A stretch of DNA of 63,183 bases, the filler included, from Globobulimina sp. (taxonomy: Eukaryota), in NCBI GenBank assembly GCA_003354225.1. It is 41 parts of 41 records of this genome, joined end to end, with 100 filler letters (N's around TTAATTAATTAA, not from the genome) between each part and the next. Parts side by side here need not be neighbours in the genome. Positions count along the whole stretch, not along the records: positions 49,402 to 50,844 come from PIVH01016597.1; 40 more parts are not named here. One strand, written 5' to 3'. Made by a program: the position numbers and the translations under genes. Positions 7,726 through 60,099 of this stretch are shown piece by piece. The notes beneath the pieces were generated by a model. That model did no database searches, was not told where the DNA came from, and worked only from the letters and a program-made list of their open reading frames with translations. Position 1 is the first letter of the stretch. The number at the start of each line of letters is the position of its first letter.

Positions 7726-8417
7726 AACCGACACCGTATGGTTGCTCGAAATAAACTATATTCACCTCTGTGATTTGTATAGTTTTGTACAGATAATCTG
7801 TAATTTTGTAGGTGTTTTTGGTGTATAAATGCATACCGTTGTTCCAGGAATATTCATTGATTGATAATTGATTGTCATTGATGGACCAGAATGGACCATG
7901 TTCGGTAAGTAAACCGCATAAACCACTGCAACCCGGTCCGCCTAACGTTGTTTCATATATGTTTTTTTTTTGTGCAAGGATATGAGGAATGTTCTATACC
8001 ATTGGTCCAAAAGAATAACGGTGCATTTTGAGGATCACTCTGTGCTTCAAAAAACCAGTAATGAATCTGTCTGCCTTCTAACGCATCGACATAGCCAGAA
8101 TAATGAGCGAAATCAAGCGTATCTGAGTCGAGACCGGGTAGTGATGAAACTAAATCGGATAAGGCTTCAACTGATAGCTTTTTTTGGTCTAATGAATGTA
8201 ATGATGAATAGGTACGTTCTGTGTTTATAAATGGATGAGATGCGGTCGATAAAATCGGGTTACCGTTGTTCCAAAATGGATATATTAATGCTGTTACACA
8301 TAACACTAAAACTGTGAATAATGCGACTGGATGGCAGATTGAAGCACATTTGCGTAATGAATTCCAATTGTCTTTGCTGTTTGAGCTATCTAATAGTGGA
8401 CTAAGCGAATCTGCCAT
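7726..8417 (-). CDS. Serine carboxypeptidase (peptidase S10), 3' partial, multi-exon
   Basis: [35 protein letters not shown] | intron 7942-7999 | [23 protein letters not shown] | intron | [13 protein letters not shown]. Confidence 0.95.
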
Positions 8418-8889
8418 GCTTATATCACAAAAAGTCGTTCACAGACACTTCAACGATATATTTATTCGTTAACCCCCAGGGAGATAAGTTGTATACGTTT
8501 TTTAATGCATATATTTGATGATGGAATTGTGGACATTTGTTACCGCAATTATTATTTCGTTTGCAGTATAACTTTTGAATTTAAGATTATCACAAAAAAA
8601 AAAACAACTCACTTCGATTCTTTCCTTCCTTTCGCTTCTCATCATGTCTCTCCTGCGACGGTTCCCTCGTCTGTACGTACATCACCAACAATTGTGTATC
8701 CAGCCAATATCAAAATTATGATTTATACAAAATAGCCTGACCCATCGCCACCGCAACAACCCACACCATCATCAACAACACTTTTATGGAATCTCCAATG
8801 ATCCCGCTAAGGTGCAATATTTACGGTTTGTGTTATAAATTTTCAATATTTTTCACTGACTAATACAAATATACAATTCCCAAACATAG

Positions 8890-13901: not shown

Positions 13902-14586
13902 TGCCACAAAAATTCAAGCTTCCTCATCAACATGTGGAGACAACCTGTGGAGATTCAAAAACAAGTGAGAGATGAATTGATGGGTGTGATGGCTGACCAA
14001 ACATTTGCTTTAAAATCAGTGAATAAATGTCCACTGTTCAAAGCAATGTGTCACGAAATTTTAAGAATATCATCAATGGTCCCAGAGGGCGGTGGCAGAG
14101 AATGTAAAAAAGATCTGTGGATTGAGTCGAACGATGGTATCCGATATAAAATACCGAAAGGTACAGTAGTGATGACTAACGTTGATTACATACATGACGT
14201 ACATTGTGAGAATAACGGGAATTGGAAGAGAGTAAATGGGGACCAAGTAATTTTAGAAAACTTTCTCGTTAAAAAAGAAAATGGTTACAATTTTGTGAAA
14301 AATGGATCCTTTATTCCGTTTGGTGTTGGGAAAAGAGGTATGACTTACATTTCATTTTCAGATAAGATTTGAGATGATTTCAAACTATTTCATTTATATA
14401 GATTGTGCAGGAAGACATTTGGCCATGAAACAAGTTTATTTTGTGTTGGGATATTTTCTTTTAAATTATAAATTACGCTTGGATGGAATTGAAGACAGTT
14501 TACTCAACCACAGTGAAAGAGTTGACATTGCTGCTGTTGCACATATCGATCCAAGGATTGGTGTTAGAATTCAAAAAATACAGTAA
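13902..14586 (+). CDS. Cytochrome P450, C-terminal part
   Basis: ExxR (HEILR); heme motif FIPFGVGKR|DCAG split by intron 14338-14401. Confidence 0.93.
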
Positions 14587-20077: not shown

Positions 20078-21509
20078 GCTGCCCGTCGTAGCCATCATCA
20101 TCAGCATCGTCGTCGTCCTCATCGGATTGGTCAGTGTTTAGGTGGTTCATAAAAGGCATCATATTGTTATTATACAACGGAATGGATTCATATCGATACG
20201 CCAATACCAGCGAGCCAACAATACGCAAAACAAAGGTAATTAAAAAAACGAGGCATAAATCGAAGCCAATGGCACAATCATAGCCAGATTCAGCTAAAAT
20301 ATCCGAGCCGCGCTCATTTGCGAAGGTTTTGGGTAGAATGATGGCGCAATATTGGCTCTCCAATGTCAACCGAACCGGGTTTGCATAATAGCCAACATAG
20401 CGCAGTACCAACGGCATGGACGTTTTCAAGATAAAACAACCCGAAAACAACCAAAAATATAATAGTAAATGCACCATAATAAAGAAGGACAAGTTGTTGT
20501 TGCAGCCAGTCGCAAACAATAAGAAATAGATAGAGTCCCAGACGCCGGCGCTGTACACAAAGCCCATCGTAAACAACACAATGGAATATCCCATGGCCGT
20601 CGCCGGGTCATTAAAATTCAGGGTCCAATAGGACAAAAGCGCAGTGATGCTGGCTAATACAATGGATAACAAATACTGCGCCCAGCAATGCAATGTACTC
20701 ATCATATTCAGCGAGTATTTGCCAGATTGCCAGTCTTGAATCCCCAACGAGAGCAATGGCACAAATAGCCGGTGATTGGCAGGCGTCTGCATCACAAATA
20801 TGAACAGCAACGCGTTCATAGCGCCAAACATGGATTTTGAGCCAGAATGCGTCGACGGTAAGTTCCAAAACGCCAAACAAACCACCAATACATAGACAAA
20901 TATCTTGAACACTTGCACCAAAAATATCTGTTTGTGGTTGGCTACGAAGCGCCAATACAACCAACCTAACCACCAATATTCCAACCACTTCTTCCGCATA
21001 TTAATGGGCAGCCTTTCAACCATATTCCTGTTCATTGGCAGCGTCTGCAACTGCAACATTTCCATATTATTTGCTTGCCGCAAATCGTGGATTAACAAAA
21101 CCAATTTCTGCATGGATTGCGTGTCTGTTTTGCATGAGTTGTCCAGCAATTCGTCGATAACATTCTCAAACTTCTTAAAGGAAAACAATTTGGGCAGAAT
21201 CTGCAACGATTCCTGGATGGTGCCCTCATAAATGGGCGACACGCCGTTGTTATAAATGTCCGCCAACACAATAATATGGTTGATGTGGTCCTGTTGGATG
21301 GACTCCAATGTCAGCTCAAACATCGTGGTCAATATCGACAGCTCATGAACTTGCGACAGCCGATGGATGCAACGAATCAGCTGTTTCTGTTCAATTATGT
21401 TCAACTCACAGTATATATTCTCAATCAATACGATGCTCGCTTTGCTGCGTAAGCCACAGTACGCAACGGCCACTTTTAAGTAATCCAATCCTTTGTTGTT
21501 AACACGCAA
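20078..21509 (-). CDS. ABCG-type transporter, membrane (ABC2) domain region
   Basis: Six TM helices; SGKYSL, LFSGCFI..SMPLVLRYVGYYANPVRLTLES; degenerate CIH motif upstream. Confidence 0.8.
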
Positions 21510-21621
21510 AAAAAACGCAATNNNNNNNNNNNNNNNNNNNNNNNNNNNNNNNNNNNNNNNNNNNNTTAATTAATTAANNNNNNNNNNNNNNNNNNNNNNN
21601 NNNNNNNNNNNNNNNNNNNNN

Positions 21622-26153: not shown

Positions 26154-26851
26154 NNNNNNNNNNNNNNNNNNNNNNNNNNNNNNNNNNNNNNNNNNNNTTA
26201 ATTAATTAANNNNNNNNNNNNNNNNNNNNNNNNNNNNNNNNNNNNNNNNNNNNTTTTAAAAAAATATGAAGGTGAAAAATGATGGATTTAATAGGGAAGA
26301 AAAAAAAGAAAAAATGGAGAAAAAAAACACAAAAACCTCAATCACAAAGTTCAAAAAAATGACGAATCAAAAACAACACAAAGTTTGTCTGTTCAAATTC
26401 CGACTCGATGATCTTTAAATATTTGTGCGTCAATCTCAAAATAACATGTAAATCGTAAAAAAAAATCAAAAAAAAAGTATACGAAAAAAAATAGGGAGAA
26501 ACACAACAGAAAACAATAAAAGGAAGCAAACAGTAACAAATTATAAAGATTATGGGAAGAGGGAAAATAATCAGAGCGAATACAACAAAATACAAAAACA
26601 CTAAAAACGCCACGGTTGAACCACACACCGACAACGTTTTTGATGGTTGGATTTCATATTAAATCATACACCTTCACTCCAAAAGAAATCGCGAAAAAAA
26701 AAAAGAAAAAGCTATATATTGGGTGATAATGGACAGATGAACGAGACACTAAATTAACGAGAACAGAGGGAGTTGTATCACAAAAAGAATATATTTTAAT
26801 TAAAATTAGAAAACATAACCCAAATATATAATATATGTCAGATGTCACTCC

Positions 26852-27697
26852 TCATTTCGTGGTAGCTCTTCGTCGCCGAAACCTGGAGCCACCGGGCGGT
26901 CTGCAACAGGTCGGATACTTCGGTCCGATGTGCTCCTTTCCATTGTTGTCCTTCTTGGCGAAGCCAATCACCATCACCGAGATGTTGTCGCTGGTCAACG
27001 GAGTCTGAATGGACTGATCCGATTTCTTGGCGGCTAATTCGATCAAAGTGTCCGCAGCCTTCTCCACATCGCCATATTTCCTCAGCGAGCGCCGACAGGC
27101 CGTCATCGCATTGGTATCGTCCATGACATCCCACAATCCGTCACAGGCAATGATGAGAAACTCGTCATCGGTGGTGAGTTGGTGTTGGGCGATGTGCGGA
27201 TCGCAGATCAATCCGTCCAATTTCCGCATGCCATTCATCACATAATAGTCGCCAATGGCTCTGGTCACAGAGATCTGCCCCGACAGCAAGTCGCTGTTGG
27301 AGTCGATGCATTGGCCGCACCGTTTCTTCTCGTCTTCGTTCTTCGGGTTATGGTCAATGGTCAGCGACTTCAACTTGCCATTGCTGCACAAAATGGCTCT
27401 GCAGTCGCCCACATTCGCCACATAAATGCAATCCTTTTTCGCTCCATTCTTGTGGCACTGGTAATAGACATAGACGCCGACGGCGCCGGCCTCGCATTGT
27501 GATGACAGCGCGAATTGTTTGAAGGTGGCGTCGGTGCGATGGAAGGCTTTCCGTATACTGTCCACAATCTCCGCAGAGTTGCCATTCGCGCCCAAATTGG
27601 CCGACACGTATTCGTGCAAATGCTGTGTGCAGAATTTGGCAGCTTCGTCGCCCAAATGGCCGTCGAATAAGCTGAAGGAATAGGTGACGCCGTCCGC
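26852..27697 (-). CDS. Protein phosphatase 2C (5' partial)
   Basis: SLFDGHLG, VANVGDCRAIL, DHNP, SVTRAIGD, FLIIACDGLWDV and SDNISV motifs. Confidence 0.96.
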   Translation of the reverse strand, partial: ADGVTYSFSLFDGHLGDEAAKFCTQHLHEYVSANLGANGNSAEIVDSIRKAFHRTDATFKQFALSSQCEAGAVGVYVYYQCHKNGAKKDCIYVANVGDCRAILCSNGKLKSLTIDHNPKNEDEKKRCGQCIDSNSDLLSGQISVTRAIGDYYVMNGMRKLDGLICDPHIAQHQLTTDDEFLIIACDGLWDVMDDTNAMTACRRSLRKYGDVEKAADTLIELAAKKSDQSIQTPLTSDNISVMVIGFAKKDNNGKEHIGPKYPTCCRPPGGSRFRRRRATTK

Positions 27698-40143: not shown

Positions 40144-40615
40144 GGATTGGTGTCTCTGAAACCGGAAAAAATCAATGGTATGATGGATATTGCGCTGTGT
40201 GTGGAATTTTTGAGAGAAAGCTTTGAGAGATATGCACCGACATTGAAATGGATGGAAATGGATATTTGGGATGCAAATTGTAAATGCCTTGGTATTAAAA
40301 TTAATAAAGTTGGAGATATTATTAAGTCTGGGAAAGGATATCAGAGTGTTTTTGGAAAAACGATTTGTCGATCACCGTATAAATATCATTGGAAATTGAG
40401 GCAAATCGCAGATAACGGACAAGATTTTTATGTTGGAATTGAAAGGAAAGGAAAGAGATTGTAAATAATTATTTTTGTAAATCAGAGACTGGTTATGGAT
40501 TTTCGGGGTTTTATGCACAATTATTTTCGAATGATAAGTGGGGGAAGAAATATGGAGCAAAAAGCACTCAGAAAGGTACTGTAATTGATGTTCATTTGGA
40601 TTTAGAAAACCAGCG
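40144..40615 (+). pseudogene. SPRY-like domain fragment with frameshift and abrupt truncation
   Basis: SVFG..KYHWKLR..FYVGI, then after a frame change TGYGF..KYG..GTVIDVHLDLEN. Confidence 0.5.
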
Positions 40616-41742
40616 GCAACCGCTGGACCATTTGTAAAGAAATTAGTTGTTATTTACATTCAATTTTTATTTTCTTTAATATAAATTGTGTTAATCACAT
40701 TCGTATTTTACGAATATTTAATTTAATTTTTTGTATATTTATTTTTATTTAAATCCACTTTGTTGTTTAGATTTTGTCCACGTCATTAAGTGGTGCTATT
40801 TATTGTTATTATCAATATGTTATCACACATCAAAGACGCGAGAAAGAAAAAAACAATTTATTCATCAAATTGTTGGTTCAAAATTATTGGTTTAAAATGT
40901 GAGAGAATTATGTACATAGCAAAATAATTGAATTTGTCAACAAAAATTACAACCATTTGCCAAAATTACCAAAAGAGAAAGAATTGCTAATTCATACTTG
41001 GTCGCAACTGAAGCAAGATTGTCATTCCTGAATCATCATTCATGGCAAACTTTTTATCCAACTCACAATCCAATCATAAGATATTTGCCATCGCTATCGC
41101 ACTCATATTCGGATCATTATACGCATTTGAGATTATGTCGCATGTATTATTTTAAAAAAAAAATGTAACATAAATAATGAATAAAAATGAACGACATTTC
41201 GCTTTGTATGGCAATAAACATACACCAAAAACTAAAATACAACCATGCAAATCGAACCGATTTCCTTTAGCTTTCCAACGATATGTTAATCATTTAATAC
41301 CACAATTGATCTAAATCCCAACTTATGACTACCACCGATTTGTCTTTTTATTAACAAATTTGAATACTTCATTAACAATTTAATTAAAAACAAAAAATAT
41401 TTTATAAAATTTTATTTTTTTCGAAATATTTATGCGGGCGACCCGTGTGGTTGTCCATGTGATCATACATATACAGTAGTGTTCCCGATAAGAGATACGC
41501 ATATAATTAGCTAATATATATGATTAGTTCTCATATATTTATTACCCAGCGAAGATTTCCTTAGGAAATTTTTTTTTTTTTTTTTTNNNNNNNNNNNNNN
41601 NNNNNNNNNNNNNNNNNNNNNNNNNNNNNNTTAATTAATTAANNNNNNNNNNNNNNNNNNNNNNNNNNNNNNNNNNNNNNNNNNNNCAATGTATGACTTA
41701 GGATAAGTTTCTGAATTTTTATATTATCATATATACACCGCT

Positions 41743-49186: not shown

Positions 49187-49401
49187 TAATTTAGAAATAG
49201 AGAATAATAATTATTATACGCTAGAATTTGAATTGAATGAATTTTGAATCTCAATCTTGTGTGGCACCATATCCAAAAAGTTTATTTATGACAAATTTAA
49301 GNNNNNNNNNNNNNNNNNNNNNNNNNNNNNNNNNNNNNNNNNNNNTTAATTAATTAANNNNNNNNNNNNNNNNNNNNNNNNNNNNNNNNNNNNNNNNNNN
49401 N

Positions 49402-50844
49402 CGGAAAATTGATAGATTGATAAAGAAAAAAAAGGATTATGGATCGATGGAATCACGGTACATAGGTGGCATAGCAAGAGTATGCACCAAAGAAGCTATA
49501 GAAATTGGCATAAAATATTTTCAACAAAATAAAAATAAAAACATTGAGAGAAAAGCATATGAAGAAGGTTTATGTTCATTGGTTGATATTAAACATGGAT
49601 CATCGACTTGGTATTATTTTAAAAATATAATACAAAGATTTTGTAATGATCCAAATAATATTGAAATACATTCAAGTGATGGAGGTGATGATATATCTGA
49701 GATTTATGATGAAAGCGATGAAATATCAGAGTTTGATGATGAAATTAAAGATGGTTTTTGCCATCTGTGCAATGGTCATACTAAAGAGAATGGTAAAATG
49801 ATACATGGATATCCATCATTAATGTGTTGTGAATGTGGAAGAGATGCTCATCCATTTTGTGAACCAACTATGAAATATTATTTACCAGTAAATTTTGATT
49901 GTGTGCCTAAAACAAATTTGCATGAATATAGACAAAATTGTATTAATGAATTGCAAAAAGATTTTAAATGTTCACATTGTTTGCATGGAAAAGAAACAAA
50001 ATTAAAAAATATTTATGTGGACCATAAAGGAAAACATATTAGTTCCATTTATGTTGTATTAAACTGTGATAAATATATTAAAATCAAAGAAAAAGACGCA
50101 AATAACAATATTATTGATATTAAACAATATAATGTTCGGAAACACAAAACGTTGATAAGATTTGTGTCTGAAAAGATTGAAAACTGGAAAATTAATGAAG
50201 ATAAAATGAAAAAATCTATTTCAAAGTATCAAGATCAAAGTAATGATACAAAATATGAAACACCAAACTACAAACCATACATTTATTTATTCGCAGATTC
50301 TGGTGTTCCTTCAGGAGGATTGAAAGTGTGTGACACACTAACAAACGCCGAAAAAAAATGGATTTATTCAAAGTTAGATTTTATGTTTTATCCTCGATAT
50401 GATCGCCGTTTACCGAATTATTTTGATATTCCAAACACTACAGATTATAGTTACGGTGATAAACGAAGAACGAATAATGTTTGGGACCGATTAAAATTAT
50501 ATTTTGGTTATTGGTACTCGTATAATAAGACTGGAACAAAAAAATGGATGAAATTAAATACAAATAATTTGACACCTTCTCGTTTGAGTGTGTATGCATT
50601 TTTGAAACTTAGAAATCAAGCCATTTGGGATAAAATGTTTTTCATTCCAAATATGTTACAAATAAACAGATATCAAGGAAACAAAGGTATCAATCAACAT
50701 CACGATGAAATATTTTGGTTTCAAAAACCAATACATTCGACAAGAATTGGAGGCTTTGCCAAACTACATTTTGGTATGATTGGCAATTATGGGAAAGTCA
50801 TTAAACAGTTGAAACATTTAGATATACAGGTAAATGATGGTGAT
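49402..50844 (+). CDS. PHD finger + ALKBH5-like AlkB 2OG-Fe(II) dioxygenase fusion (open at both ends)
   Basis: PHD CHLC..MCCECGRDAHPFC..FKCSHC; RLKLYFGYWYSY; PNMLQINRYQGNKGINQHHDEIFWFQKPIHS..LHFG with an HxD iron ligand. Confidence 0.75.
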
Positions 50845-50944
50845 NNNNNNNNNNNNNNNNNNNNNNNNNNNNNNNNNNNNNNNNNNNNTTAATTAATTAA
50901 NNNNNNNNNNNNNNNNNNNNNNNNNNNNNNNNNNNNNNNNNNNN

Positions 50945-51145: not shown

Positions 51146-51227
51146 TACCGATCTGGCGCTGGACGAACAAATGCAGTGAACTGCAGTTGGATTTTGTTAG
51201 TTTTGTAACTTAAAAAAATGTAAACTT

Positions 51228-52387
51228 ATGTGGATCATGGACAGTCTCTGCAATAAATTACTTCACTGTGAAAAACATCTGTACGGTGTAACAATGCCGC
51301 CAAGAAACAAAAAGAAAAAGAAGCAACCAAAGAAATCCAGAGAGCAACTAAAAAAAGATAGAAACAAACTAAAAGCGCAAAATAAACATCAAAAGCAGCA
51401 CAGAAAAAAGAAAAAAAAAGGCAATAAATGGAACGAATACAGTGATTTAACTCACACAGAATTATTGCAAATTTTGCACAAAGGATATAAAGAATTGAAT
51501 GTAGATTCTATTCAAAGCTTAAAACGAAGCAGGAAAAATTTAAAATTTAAGCAACAAGTATTGGCAGAATGTTTCAATTTGGTTTGGATAAAATGTGACA
51601 ATAAAGTATGCAAAGCAGAGTTTCTGTCAACAAAATTAATTTTATTGACTATCTTACTCAGAGATTTTAAATTGGATTTGAGCTCATCACAAAATTTCTT
51701 CAGCCCCAACGATGATGACACTTTATATGATCGCACCTCCTTACTCTGCCAGACATGTTTATCGCCGATGATTCAATTCAATTTAGAATATATTCATATG
51801 TCTGATTCGTATCTCTCATCGCTGAAATTGTTAATATTGCAACAATTACACTTCTCATTGTTTCAGTATGTGGCTCGTGATGCTTTGGGTGATGACATTT
51901 CATGCAACCGGGCAGACATACTTCATACGGGTTGGCATGCCACAATAAAACAGAAATTAGAGAAATGGTGGATTTCACAAATCAACTTTCGGACTAAAAC
52001 CTTGATCCATTGGGCTGTGCATCAGGGCGTGTATTTGGATGTGGTGTTTCCATATTTTTCAATGTTTAAAGATAACATATTAAGCACAGACAGACCGCGT
52101 AAAGAATGTGAACAGGATTTGTTTGATCCGTTAAACTTATCAATAAATGAAAAGGAGAATGTGAATAAGTTGGGCATTCCTGAGTTTATTTGCATGCAAT
52201 TGGGTGCAACTCTCGGTAGTGCATTATTGGAAAGAAAGAGACTGTTTGAAAAGGAGGAGTTTGCTGCATTGTGTAAAATTGATGTGATATATGATCGTGA
52301 TTTGGAATATGTGTACATGCGAATAGCAGATTTATTTGATGAAGGCCGATTGAAATGGTTACAGACAGACAAAGGCCATCAAGTCTA
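51228..52387 (+). CDS. Hypothetical protein with Lys-rich N-terminus (3' partial)
   Basis: Long ORF; likely start MPPRNKKKK at 51294. Confidence 0.6.
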
Positions 52388-59101: not shown

Positions 59102-59462
59102 TTAAATAAATAGTTTCACCGCAGTACGTCATGACGCATTTTAATATATGTTACGCTCGTAATGCATTTTGAAAATGTGTGTTTTGTGTTAGTGCTTTGG
59201 GTGTTTTTCGTTTCTTTCATCAAAAACTTTTTTGTCATCGAATATCACCACCAAACCAAACACCAAAACTAAATCGCTCAATATTCTATCTTGTCTATAT
59301 CGCGTCTCAATTATTACGATTTATTAGTAATAGACGGAATTATTAACAACTTTATTAATTATTATTTTAATTAATTTTAGTATTCCTTACTTTCCCTACA
59401 TACATTTTCATCAAATCTCATCAAACCAACACCAGAAATAAATCGCTAAATATTTTTTTAAA

Positions 59463-60099
59463 ATGTTGCTGTTTATTATTAGTGTTTTATTCCTGATGAC
59501 TGTTGTATTTGGTGATAGTTTTTCACACTGTAACGATATCGGACGGTGCTATCAAGAATGCGGATTTACATCAACAGCATCAGAATGTGACACATTGCCA
59601 CCCATTCCAACCAATGAAAACTTAAATGGTGAAATATTAATGTATCGAACATCTCATTCAAATGAAAAGTTTACTAAATATCAACTGCAATGGAACAAAT
59701 ATTCAAATAAAACACGCAATACCATCTCGTTAACAATTGATAGCAGCAAAAAATATCAACAAATTGTTGGATTTGGTGCTGCCTTTACTGACGCAGTGGT
59801 ATTGAATTTGAATAAAATGCAAAACATTGCATCCACACAATATGATAATTCTAACATCATTTATGACATATTATACTCCTATTTTTCGTGGAATGATTCC
59901 AACAAAAACAACCACGGTGGTTCTGGATATTTATATGGCAGAATACCCATCGCATCATGTGACTTCTCACCATATTCATACACATACTTACCAATTGCAA
60001 ACGATTTTGATTTGGAACATTTCCATTTAACTCAACAAGATTTAGGAAATCAAAGCAATCCAAACTTACAATTTGGAAGATTTGATATTATTCATATGG
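59463..60099 (+). CDS. Glycoside hydrolase family 30 (glucosylceramidase-like), secreted, 3' partial
   Basis: Signal peptide; KYQQIVGFGAAFTDA, SYFS, GRIPIASCDFS...YTY....DFDLEHF.L. Confidence 0.92.

Follow-up and report, generated by a model that had tools for sequence, protein, structure and literature searches.

ALKBH5, known from human and zebrafish (PDB 4NJ4, 4NRO, 7WKV, 7WL0 and 7V4G), is an RNA demethylase that acts on N6-methyladenine (m6A in RNA, 6mA in DNA) and belongs to the AlkB-type oxygenases, which use 2-oxoglutarate (2OG) and Fe(II). Substitutions in its nucleotide-recognition lid (R130A or R130E, K132R, Y139A) leave it inactive or nearly so; K132 and Y139 have been tied to the breakdown of the hydroxymethyl/hemiaminal intermediate, and R130, K132 and Y139 to the handling of m6A, as described in PMC9023255. 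The same article describes a salt bridge between Arg277 and the C5 carboxylate of 2OG, Arg277 is called required for 2OG binding in PMC3985658, and Ser217 is described as contacting citrate in the cofactor pocket in PMC9136571. Here we analyse one contig from Globobulimina sp., positions 49402-50844 of a 63183-base stretch of DNA (hereafter, the window). It encodes part of a protein in which a PHD-like zinc finger precedes an ALKBH5-like oxygenase, and we compare this protein and its family with ALKBH5, which has neither the zinc finger nor the N-terminal helical module and the beta module that the family carries.

Fusions of this general kind are in print. Iyer, Zhang and Aravind (Bioessays 2016, PMC4738411) describe PHD- or AT-hook-fused proteins of the AlkBH5 clade, chlorophyte ones among them, as predicted DNA 6mA demethylases, and, by their account, in lineages without NMAD-1 the strongest computational candidates are AlkB enzymes fused to readers. 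The C. elegans NMAD-1/ALKBH4 clade, which combines an AlkB oxygenase with an N-terminal zinc-binding domain, is tied to DNA 6mA in the same article. The present family shares with the AlkBH5-clade proteins the core layout (PHD plus AlkBH5-type oxygenase) and the idea of a chromatin-directed removal of N6-methyladenine. As far as the descriptions in that article go, it differs from them in being AT-rich, in its extra N-terminal and beta modules and in a 36-residue insert in the finger; unlike them, it falls below threshold for the Pfam PHD and AlkB models. The first-pass annotation of this contig had put forward the PHD-ALKBH5 fusion as a candidate chromatin-targeted methyladenine eraser; layout and idea had both been published in 2016, so its novelty was overstated. 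Beyond that article, our full-text literature search on the architecture returned no paper with a matching title or abstract, which is no proof that the family is undescribed.

The enzymes that remove N6-methyladenine from eukaryotic DNA are still disputed. The family provides a compact test case, with a complete complement of ALKBH5-type catalytic residues, a chromatin-type finger, no disulfide of the kind that enforces single-strand selectivity, and what amounts to a natural experiment in cofactor anchoring. With the general idea already published, what makes it of interest is its rarity and divergence, the additional modules, and a cofactor-anchoring arginine that appears to have been relocated.

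A rare family with a recurring order of domains

Positions 49402-50844 coincide exactly with one contig of 1443 bases. Frame 1 of the plus strand is open throughout, giving 481 codons in the standard code; the remaining five frames contain 23-68 stops each, and 0 of 2000 shuffled versions of the contig had an open frame. The single frame of about 480 codons proposed in the first-pass annotation is therefore real, and the acidic patch, the C4HC3 pattern and every motif string quoted there are found in its translation (RLKLYFGYWYSY at 50488-50523, NMLQINRYQ at 50650-50676, INQHHDEIFWFQKPIHS at 50689-50739 and LHFG at 50764-50775). An alternative genetic code was rejected because the frame is open under the standard one.

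Both ends of the frame are cut. In an alignment with the relative P0002 (597 residues), the first residue of the frame falls opposite residue 53 of that protein, and the Met at 49447 is internal. At the 3' end, full-length relatives run about 49 residues further, and these residues hold the distal His and the last Arg, both of which had rightly been placed past the end of the contig. The gene had also been called intronless, a description that holds for these 1443 bases and has no support beyond them. The gene as a whole, eukaryotic and roughly 580 codons long, probably encodes a multi-domain nuclear protein, and the contig represents its middle 481 codons.

A word-indexed search of 5.8 billion proteins yielded two related proteins, P0002, with 38% identity across the entire query, and P0003, with 40%. 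When a profile of these two and the window protein was run over 1.84 billion representatives, 29 proteins matched at an expect value (E) of E<=1e-3, of which 15 reached E<=1e-10 and 8 reached E<=1e-30. Zinc finger and oxygenase follow one another in a single chain in P0002, P0004, P0006, P0010, P0015, P0021, P0022, P0024 and P0025, all on separate contigs; the other family members are fragments that cover one half or the other. Ten family proteins that we looked up fell into nine singleton clusters and one cluster of two members, on contigs of 1.6-8.4 kb, those of P0006, P0010 and P0002 being 8.4, 5.5 and 5.1 kb long, and identity between family proteins is only about 20-40%. Judged by these sequence comparisons, this is a genuine and rare family whose members are collinear from one independent assembly to another.

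We used three alignments: a wide one of 30 family sequences with distant members included (A2), a core of 19 sequences (A3), and six distant proteins (A5). Residue counts were taken on A2 over the sequences covering each column, and because A2 contains distant members the search was repeated with the core. The AlphaFold2 model discussed below is that of the full-length relative P0002, built with the 30-sequence alignment (predicted local distance difference test score, pLDDT, 88.0; predicted template-modelling score, pTM, 0.70), and not of the window copy, which with the three-sequence alignment gave an unusable model (pLDDT 43.6).

The oxygenase domain is most like ALKBH5

The P0002 model folds as a double-stranded beta-helix that has the N-terminal extension of AlkB-type enzymes. 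Compared with 48161 chains by VIA-align, its top 12 rows are all AlkB-family proteins (Z 12.6-18.8), led by ALKBH5 at Z 18.8 over 212 of 218 residues with a root-mean-square deviation of 3.5. The runners-up are ALKBH6 (15.5), NMAD-1 (14.8), ALKBH3 (14.2), ALKBH1 (14.1), ALKBH2 (13.7) and ALKBH8 (13.4); NMAD-1, third in this ranking at 10% identity, was not among the sequence-profile matches. With Foldseek, the top 13 listed rows are ALKBH5 chains (7wl0_C at E 2.7e-10; target template-modelling score 0.61-0.77), and ALKBH6, the next family in the list, enters at rank 15 with E 8.0e-9.

Sequence profiles point the same way once they are deep enough. The three-sequence profile reached E. coli AlkB alone among solved structures, at E 1.8. 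The best match of the wide profile is human ALKBH5 (E 3.3e-24, 88.9 bits), followed by ALKBH8 (4.6e-13, 52.3 bits), ALKBH3 (5.2e-9, 38.9 bits), ALKBH2 (7.9e-7, 31.7 bits), and ALKBH1 and E. coli AlkB (5.8e-3). The six distant proteins, which have both zinc finger and oxygenase, match ALKBH5 at 2.6e-37 and 132 bits, with the next match at 25.7 bits and with ALKBH3 at 4e-5 and ALKBH8 at 2.2e-4; hhalign joins the core family to this distant group over 206 columns (probability 99.5%, E 1.4e-22). Against the Pfam model PF13532 (2OG-FeII_Oxy_2, curated cut-off 31.2 bits) the window protein has no match, P0002 (26.9 bits, E 6.5e-6) and P0003 (31.1 bits, E 3.5e-7) fall just under the cut-off, and among the members scanned only P0018, P0024 and P0029 exceed it. 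The annotation of the C-terminal domain as AlkB-type, with ALKBH5 as its nearest kin, is borne out. By profile and predicted structure, no characterised enzyme is closer than ALKBH5; identity across the domain is about 20%, and the core family stands beside ALKBH5 as a highly divergent branch.

The residues that in ALKBH5 handle m6A, iron and 2OG are kept across this divergence. Equivalents of the lid residues R130 (18/18), K132 (19/19) and Y139 (19/20) are nearly invariant, those of N193, Y195, H204, D206 and H266 are each present in 23 of 24 sequences, and that of R283 in 22 of 23. The window copy has every active-site residue that lies inside the contig, namely R363, K365, Y372, N422, Y424, H433 and D435. 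Its iron triad is represented by H433-x-D435, the distal His being past the contig end; in the family the three ligands are found in 23/24 sequences each. The motifs that had been matched to ALKBH5 by eye do indeed align with R130/K132/Y139 and N193/Y195/H204/D206. ALKBH8 has a similar R..K..FGY motif, so the lid set may not be exclusive to ALKBH5.

A PHD-like finger precedes the oxygenase

Upstream of the oxygenase, the protein contains the pattern C120-x2-C123-x18-C142-x2-C145-x4-H150-x2-C153-x36-C190-x2-C193. The order and spacing of these ligands are those of a C4HC3 PHD finger, with a 36-residue insert separating ligands 6 and 7; a last loop of this length is long but still inside the range reported for PHD fingers. 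Conservation is close to complete at each position (C1 16/16, C2 16/16, C3 17/17, C4 14/15, H5 12/14, C6 13/14, C7 13/13, C8 13/13). An aromatic residue two positions before Cys7, usually Trp, is a hallmark of PHD fingers, and here this position is aromatic in 13 of 14 sequences (Y 7, F 5, W 1; L in the other one), with F188 in the window copy. Short strands before Cys3 and after Cys4 are likewise typical, and the P0002 model, which is confident over the finger (pLDDT 92-97), has both.

The wide profile matches the solved PHD fingers of ARID4 (2.6e-5), MTF2 (4.7e-5), MLL1 PHD3 (1.1e-4) and UHRF1 (0.004-0.02). No Pfam PHD model passes its cut-off in any of the 30 members, PHD_4 being reached in two (E 0.33) and PHD_NSD in one (E 0.029). 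Hence the earlier call of a PHD finger stands as regards the exact ligand spacing and the wide-profile match, but core-only and Pfam PHD matches are not significant. Because solved PHD fingers are reached only with distant relatives in the profile, we name the module PHD-like.

The distant proteins (P0024, P0033, P0034, P0026, P0029 and P0030) place this arrangement in a wider group. Their oxygenase is homologous to that of the core family, and they share with it S or T at the Arg277 place, an 'S-L-R-L' stretch on beta-III and, where the N-terminus is present, a zinc finger upstream. They differ from the core in being much closer to ALKBH5, in their short, canonical finger (UHRF1 PHD at 9.4e-5), in keeping, in some cases, the Cys267 equivalent, and in a C-terminal ARID, seen as a weak match in P0024 (E 3.1e-4) and recorded as a family assignment for P0033. 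That P0024 and P0033 combine a C-terminal ARID, a DNA-binding domain, and an ALKBH5-like oxygenase with a PHD finger of the short, canonical type points to DNA or chromatin as the setting of the wider group.

Predicted function and points that weigh against it

From these comparisons the order of the domains is established, as is the resemblance to ALKBH5 in both profile and predicted fold; the iron ligands and m6A-handling residues are shown to be conserved. Most likely, we predict, these proteins oxidise N6-methyladenine as ALKBH5 does and are tethered to chromatin as they do so. The explanation that accounts best for the sequence and the model as a whole is that of a chromatin-tethered N6-methyladenine demethylase, a divergent offshoot of the ALKBH5 lineage, and we regard it as probable. 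Along the chain, a helical N-terminal module, a disordered linker, the PHD-like C4HC3 finger and a beta module lead to the AlkB-type oxygenase. The oxygenase would oxidise the N6-methyl group of adenine in nucleic acid and release formaldehyde, and the zinc finger, perhaps together with the N-terminal module, would hold the enzyme on chromatin. The substrate, on this view, would be either 6mA in DNA or m6A in RNA associated with chromatin. In the cofactor pocket, a basic residue on beta-III, rather than the Arg of beta-VIII, would form the salt bridge to the C5 carboxylate of 2OG.

Several results weigh against this prediction. Searched alone, the window protein matches no Pfam family (best BAMBI_C, E 0.24), and phmmer against solved structures returns one irrelevant match at E 0.4. 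PF13532 is reached by only 13 of 30 members even at E<=1. The core-only profile scores ALKBH5 at 30.5 bits and ALKBH8 at 29.0 bits and so barely separates them, which means that the clear preference for ALKBH5 rests on the distant members and the predicted structure. Core-only profiles likewise find solved PHD fingers at values that are not significant (1wev at E 0.068 and E 2), and hhalign links the core and distant zinc regions weakly, over 32 columns that span the first six ligands only (E 0.0037, probability 8.9%). Because the distal His and the last Arg lie past the contig end, this copy cannot be shown to be intact. In addition, none of the 22 sequences that cover the Arg277 place has Arg there (S in 9, T in 6, A in 3, others in 4), and given this loss the enzyme could bind its cofactor differently or poorly.

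The cofactor pocket offers a possible compensation. The RxxxxxR motif of beta-VIII keeps its second Arg (22/23), whose place is beside the iron, and lacks its first (0/22), both sites being past the end of the window contig. At the position of ALKBH5 Ser219, 23 of 25 sequences have a basic residue (R 20, K 3), which is R448 in the window copy. This position is on the same face as Ser217, because Ser217 sits two residues earlier on the same strand. We infer that the anchoring base may have moved to the adjacent strand, with an R448-type residue replacing the missing Arg277. To our knowledge, all other characterised AlkB enzymes have the Arg on beta-VIII and a Ser at the Ser219 place, and we know of no report of such a re-wired cofactor pocket in any of them. 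If the relocated Arg is functional, sequence rules such as RxxxxxR, by which AlkB enzymes are judged active or dead, would have to be relaxed.

A second departure from ALKBH5 concerns its Cys230-Cys267 disulfide, which constrains the beta-IV/V loop as well as enforcing single-strand selectivity. In the family, Cys occupies the first site in 2 of 23 sequences and the second in 5 of 24; the window copy has Met459 at the Cys230 place, and the Cys267 place, past the contig end, is Gly in P0002 and P0003. Arg277 and the disulfide were both looked for and both found to be missing; for this reason the family is not classed here as orthologous to ALKBH5. A bolder version of the demethylase prediction takes these departures together: the proteins would form an undescribed reader-fused lineage in which the anchoring Arg has shifted from beta-VIII to beta-III and the disulfide has been lost; with the PHD-like finger and an N-terminal module that may bind DNA, the result would be a chromatin-targeted DNA 6mA eraser that is possibly capable of acting on duplexes. 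We put this version forward tentatively, as a possibility that we would not bet on.

Alternative explanations

The same domains could instead belong to a chromatin-tethered repair enzyme that, in the manner of AlkB, ALKBH2 and ALKBH3, clears DNA or RNA of alkylation damage (1-methyladenine, 3-methylcytosine, etheno adducts) rather than of regulatory N6-methyladenine. The fold and the iron and 2OG residues are common to all AlkB enzymes, ALKBH3, ALKBH2, ALKBH1 and AlkB were matched as well, and PHD fusions are also noted in an AlkBH3-related group (PMC4738411). We nevertheless consider a repair function unlikely: ALKBH5 leads ALKBH3 and ALKBH2 both in the wide profile (88.9 against 38.9 and 31.7 bits) and in structure (Z 18.8 against 14.2 and 13.7), and the m6A-linked R130/K132/Y139 set is nearly invariant in the family.

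Equally doubtful is an origin as mobile-element cargo or a domesticated remnant, for example of a large DNA transposon, with the N-terminal helices derived from a transposase-type DNA-binding domain; such an origin would not exclude the demethylase prediction and is compatible with it. The guanine-plus-cytosine content (GC) of the contig, 28.6%, is the lowest of the 41 contigs in the window (mean 34.8%, standard deviation 3.8%), its GC at third codon positions (GC3), 0.20, is the lowest among 26 long frames of the window, the family is rare, scattered and found as singleton clusters on short contigs, and the N-terminal module gives weak PAX and HTH_28 leads. The first-pass annotation had read the low GC as a possible sign of transposon cargo; the value is indeed the lowest in the window, but it deviates by just 1.6 standard deviations from the mean, a mild outlier, and the helix-turn-helix leads are below any threshold. 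The 1443-base contig is filled by the one frame and contains no transposase and no terminal repeats, its only repeats being short matches at chance level and, in the linker, a tandem duplication of 30 bases, and there is no second copy in the window. Overall, the analysis turned up evidence in neither direction on a transposon origin. None of the pattern matches was confirmed as a relative, whether in viral contigs (84 matches), JGI metagenomes (170) or prokaryote genomes (65). Matches in a library of viral structures were limited to generic AlkB domains that scored below ALKBH5 (best E 2.1e-8), with no specific viral link. A bacterial or phage origin was rejected on the grounds that no relatives were found there and that other contigs of the window carry eukaryotic genes.

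The loss of the canonical 2OG-binding Arg also raises the question of whether the protein, though it has the oxygenase fold, is catalytically weakened or inactive and serves as a reader or scaffold that binds methylated nucleic acid. In favour of this, none of the 22 sequences has Arg at the Arg277 place, a residue called required for 2OG binding (PMC3985658). Yet the iron ligands and the equivalents of N193/Y195, R283 and K132/Y139 are kept at 20-40% identity, with a basic residue fixed nearby in 23 of 25 sequences; catalytic residues kept across such divergent proteins form the pattern expected of an active enzyme, and we hold the inactive alternative to be quite improbable.

Finally, an assembly chimera of an unrelated zinc-finger gene and an AlkB gene is hardly credible: no single Logan contig spans the stretch, and two pieces abut at 50215-50219 with 5 shared bases at a depth of about 5-6, but the order of modules and the conserved residues through the junction recur in relatives on separate contigs, the abutment falls within the helix that follows the beta module, a conserved segment, and not between domains, and the P0002 model is confident across all junctions. 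It is the collinear relatives from independent assemblies, not the reads, that exclude it. One public sequencing run, X1, contains 0.87 of the sampled words of the stretch and is probably the source sample; its longest contig, of 98 kb, suggests DNA. Runs X2 and X3 contain next to none of the words, and no RNA run is listed as carrying them.

Features of the contig and the remaining modules

The features of the contig are collected in Table 1.

Table 1. Features encoded by the contig, in positions of the window, with the basis of each assignment
Feature	Position	Strand	Basis
Rear part of an all-helical N-terminal module (residues 1-85), cut at the 5' end	49402..49656	+	Aligns with P0002 residues 53-135
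Acidic linker, predicted disordered (acid patch residues 91-118, 49672-49755)	49657..49755	+	P0002 model
PHD-like C4HC3 zinc finger, residues 120-193	49759..49980	+	Ligand pattern and family alignment
Small beta-rich module, about residues 198-258, between zinc finger and oxygenase	49993..50175	+	P0002 model
ALKBH5-like AlkB-type 2OG/Fe(II) oxygenase, cut at the 3' end about 49 residues before the C-terminus	50185..50844	+	Profiles, hhalign, Foldseek, VIA
R363-x-K365 ... Y372-x-Y374 motif, nucleotide-recognition lid	50488..50523	+	Aligns with ALKBH5 R130, K132, Y139, Y141
N422 and Y424 (2OG contacts), H433-x-D435 (iron ligands)	50665..50706	+	Align with ALKBH5 N193, Y195, H204, D206
S446-T-R448, strand after HxD; R448 at the ALKBH5 Ser219 place	50737..50745	+	A2 alignment

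In the P0002 model, the N-terminal module consists of helices at residues 48-65, 82-95, 102-113 and 120-135 (pLDDT about 86-97), and the window copy includes a conserved 'SSTWY' helix start at 49600-49614. The Pfam leads in this region are weak, with PAX in 2 of 30 members (best E 0.014) and Myb_DNA-bind_4 in one (E 7e-5). ESM Atlas returned sub-threshold hits of at most 0.82, among them an HTH_28 cluster at 0.76, below a usable score, and the core N-terminal profile found nothing significant among solved structures. As a lead, the module may be a helix-turn-helix DNA-binding module.

The linker that follows corresponds to P0002 residues 140-185, where pLDDT drops below 50, and it is not conserved, being basic in P0002 and acidic in P0004. 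In the window copy, the tandem duplication at 49677-49736 is imperfect (77% identity) and encodes two similar acidic decapeptides. The beta module is modelled with confidence in P0002 (strands at 265-273, 279-288, 292-298, 304-311 and 321-325; pLDDT 94-98). It has no Pfam or PDB sequence match, and the structure searches, being dominated by the oxygenase domain, barely probed it; ESM Atlas gave no usable hit for the zinc-plus-beta region.

Composition of the window

The window is made of 41 separate contigs of 1442-1445 bases each, ordered by descending length and joined by spacers of the form N44-TTAATTAATTAA-N44 (for example 49302-49401 and 50845-50944), so that 80 runs of 44 N are paired around the 12-mer TTAATTAATTAA. 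Because the contigs are joined by spacers, the neighbouring "genes" of 49402-50844 are on unrelated contigs, and a neighbourhood across spacers is meaningless.

Frames of at least 150 codons occur in 37 of the 41 contigs. When the 36 long frames outside the contig at 49402-50844 were scanned against Pfam at E<=1e-5, 16 matched eukaryotic families, including PIP5K, PP2C, NatA auxiliary subunit, P450, XPG, Glyco_transf_49 and MMACHC. The other 20 (150-481 codons) had no match at this threshold; they include the whole-contig frames 12360-13799 and 24711-26153 and, on the contig that follows in the window, a frame rich in lysine at 51201-52385. In several of the matched frames the stop falls in mid-domain (P450 at 13902-14369, GH30 at 59442-60098 and Peptidase_S10 at 7956-8438), as would be expected of intron-bearing genomic DNA as the source.

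Base composition varies among these frames. The PP2C phosphatase frame at 26855-27697 (minus strand; contig 26254-27697) has a GC of 53.6% and a GC3 of 0.70, most other long frames of the window lie at a GC3 of about 0.20-0.43, and the frame at 20078-21521 is at 0.59. The high GC3 of the PP2C frame may reflect a mixed-organism assembly or a strongly heterogeneous codon usage in this genome. Of the two contigs at 40144-41586 and 1546-2990, one ends in 18 T and the other starts A-rich; these ends could be derived from poly(A) or could be simple low-complexity genomic sequence.

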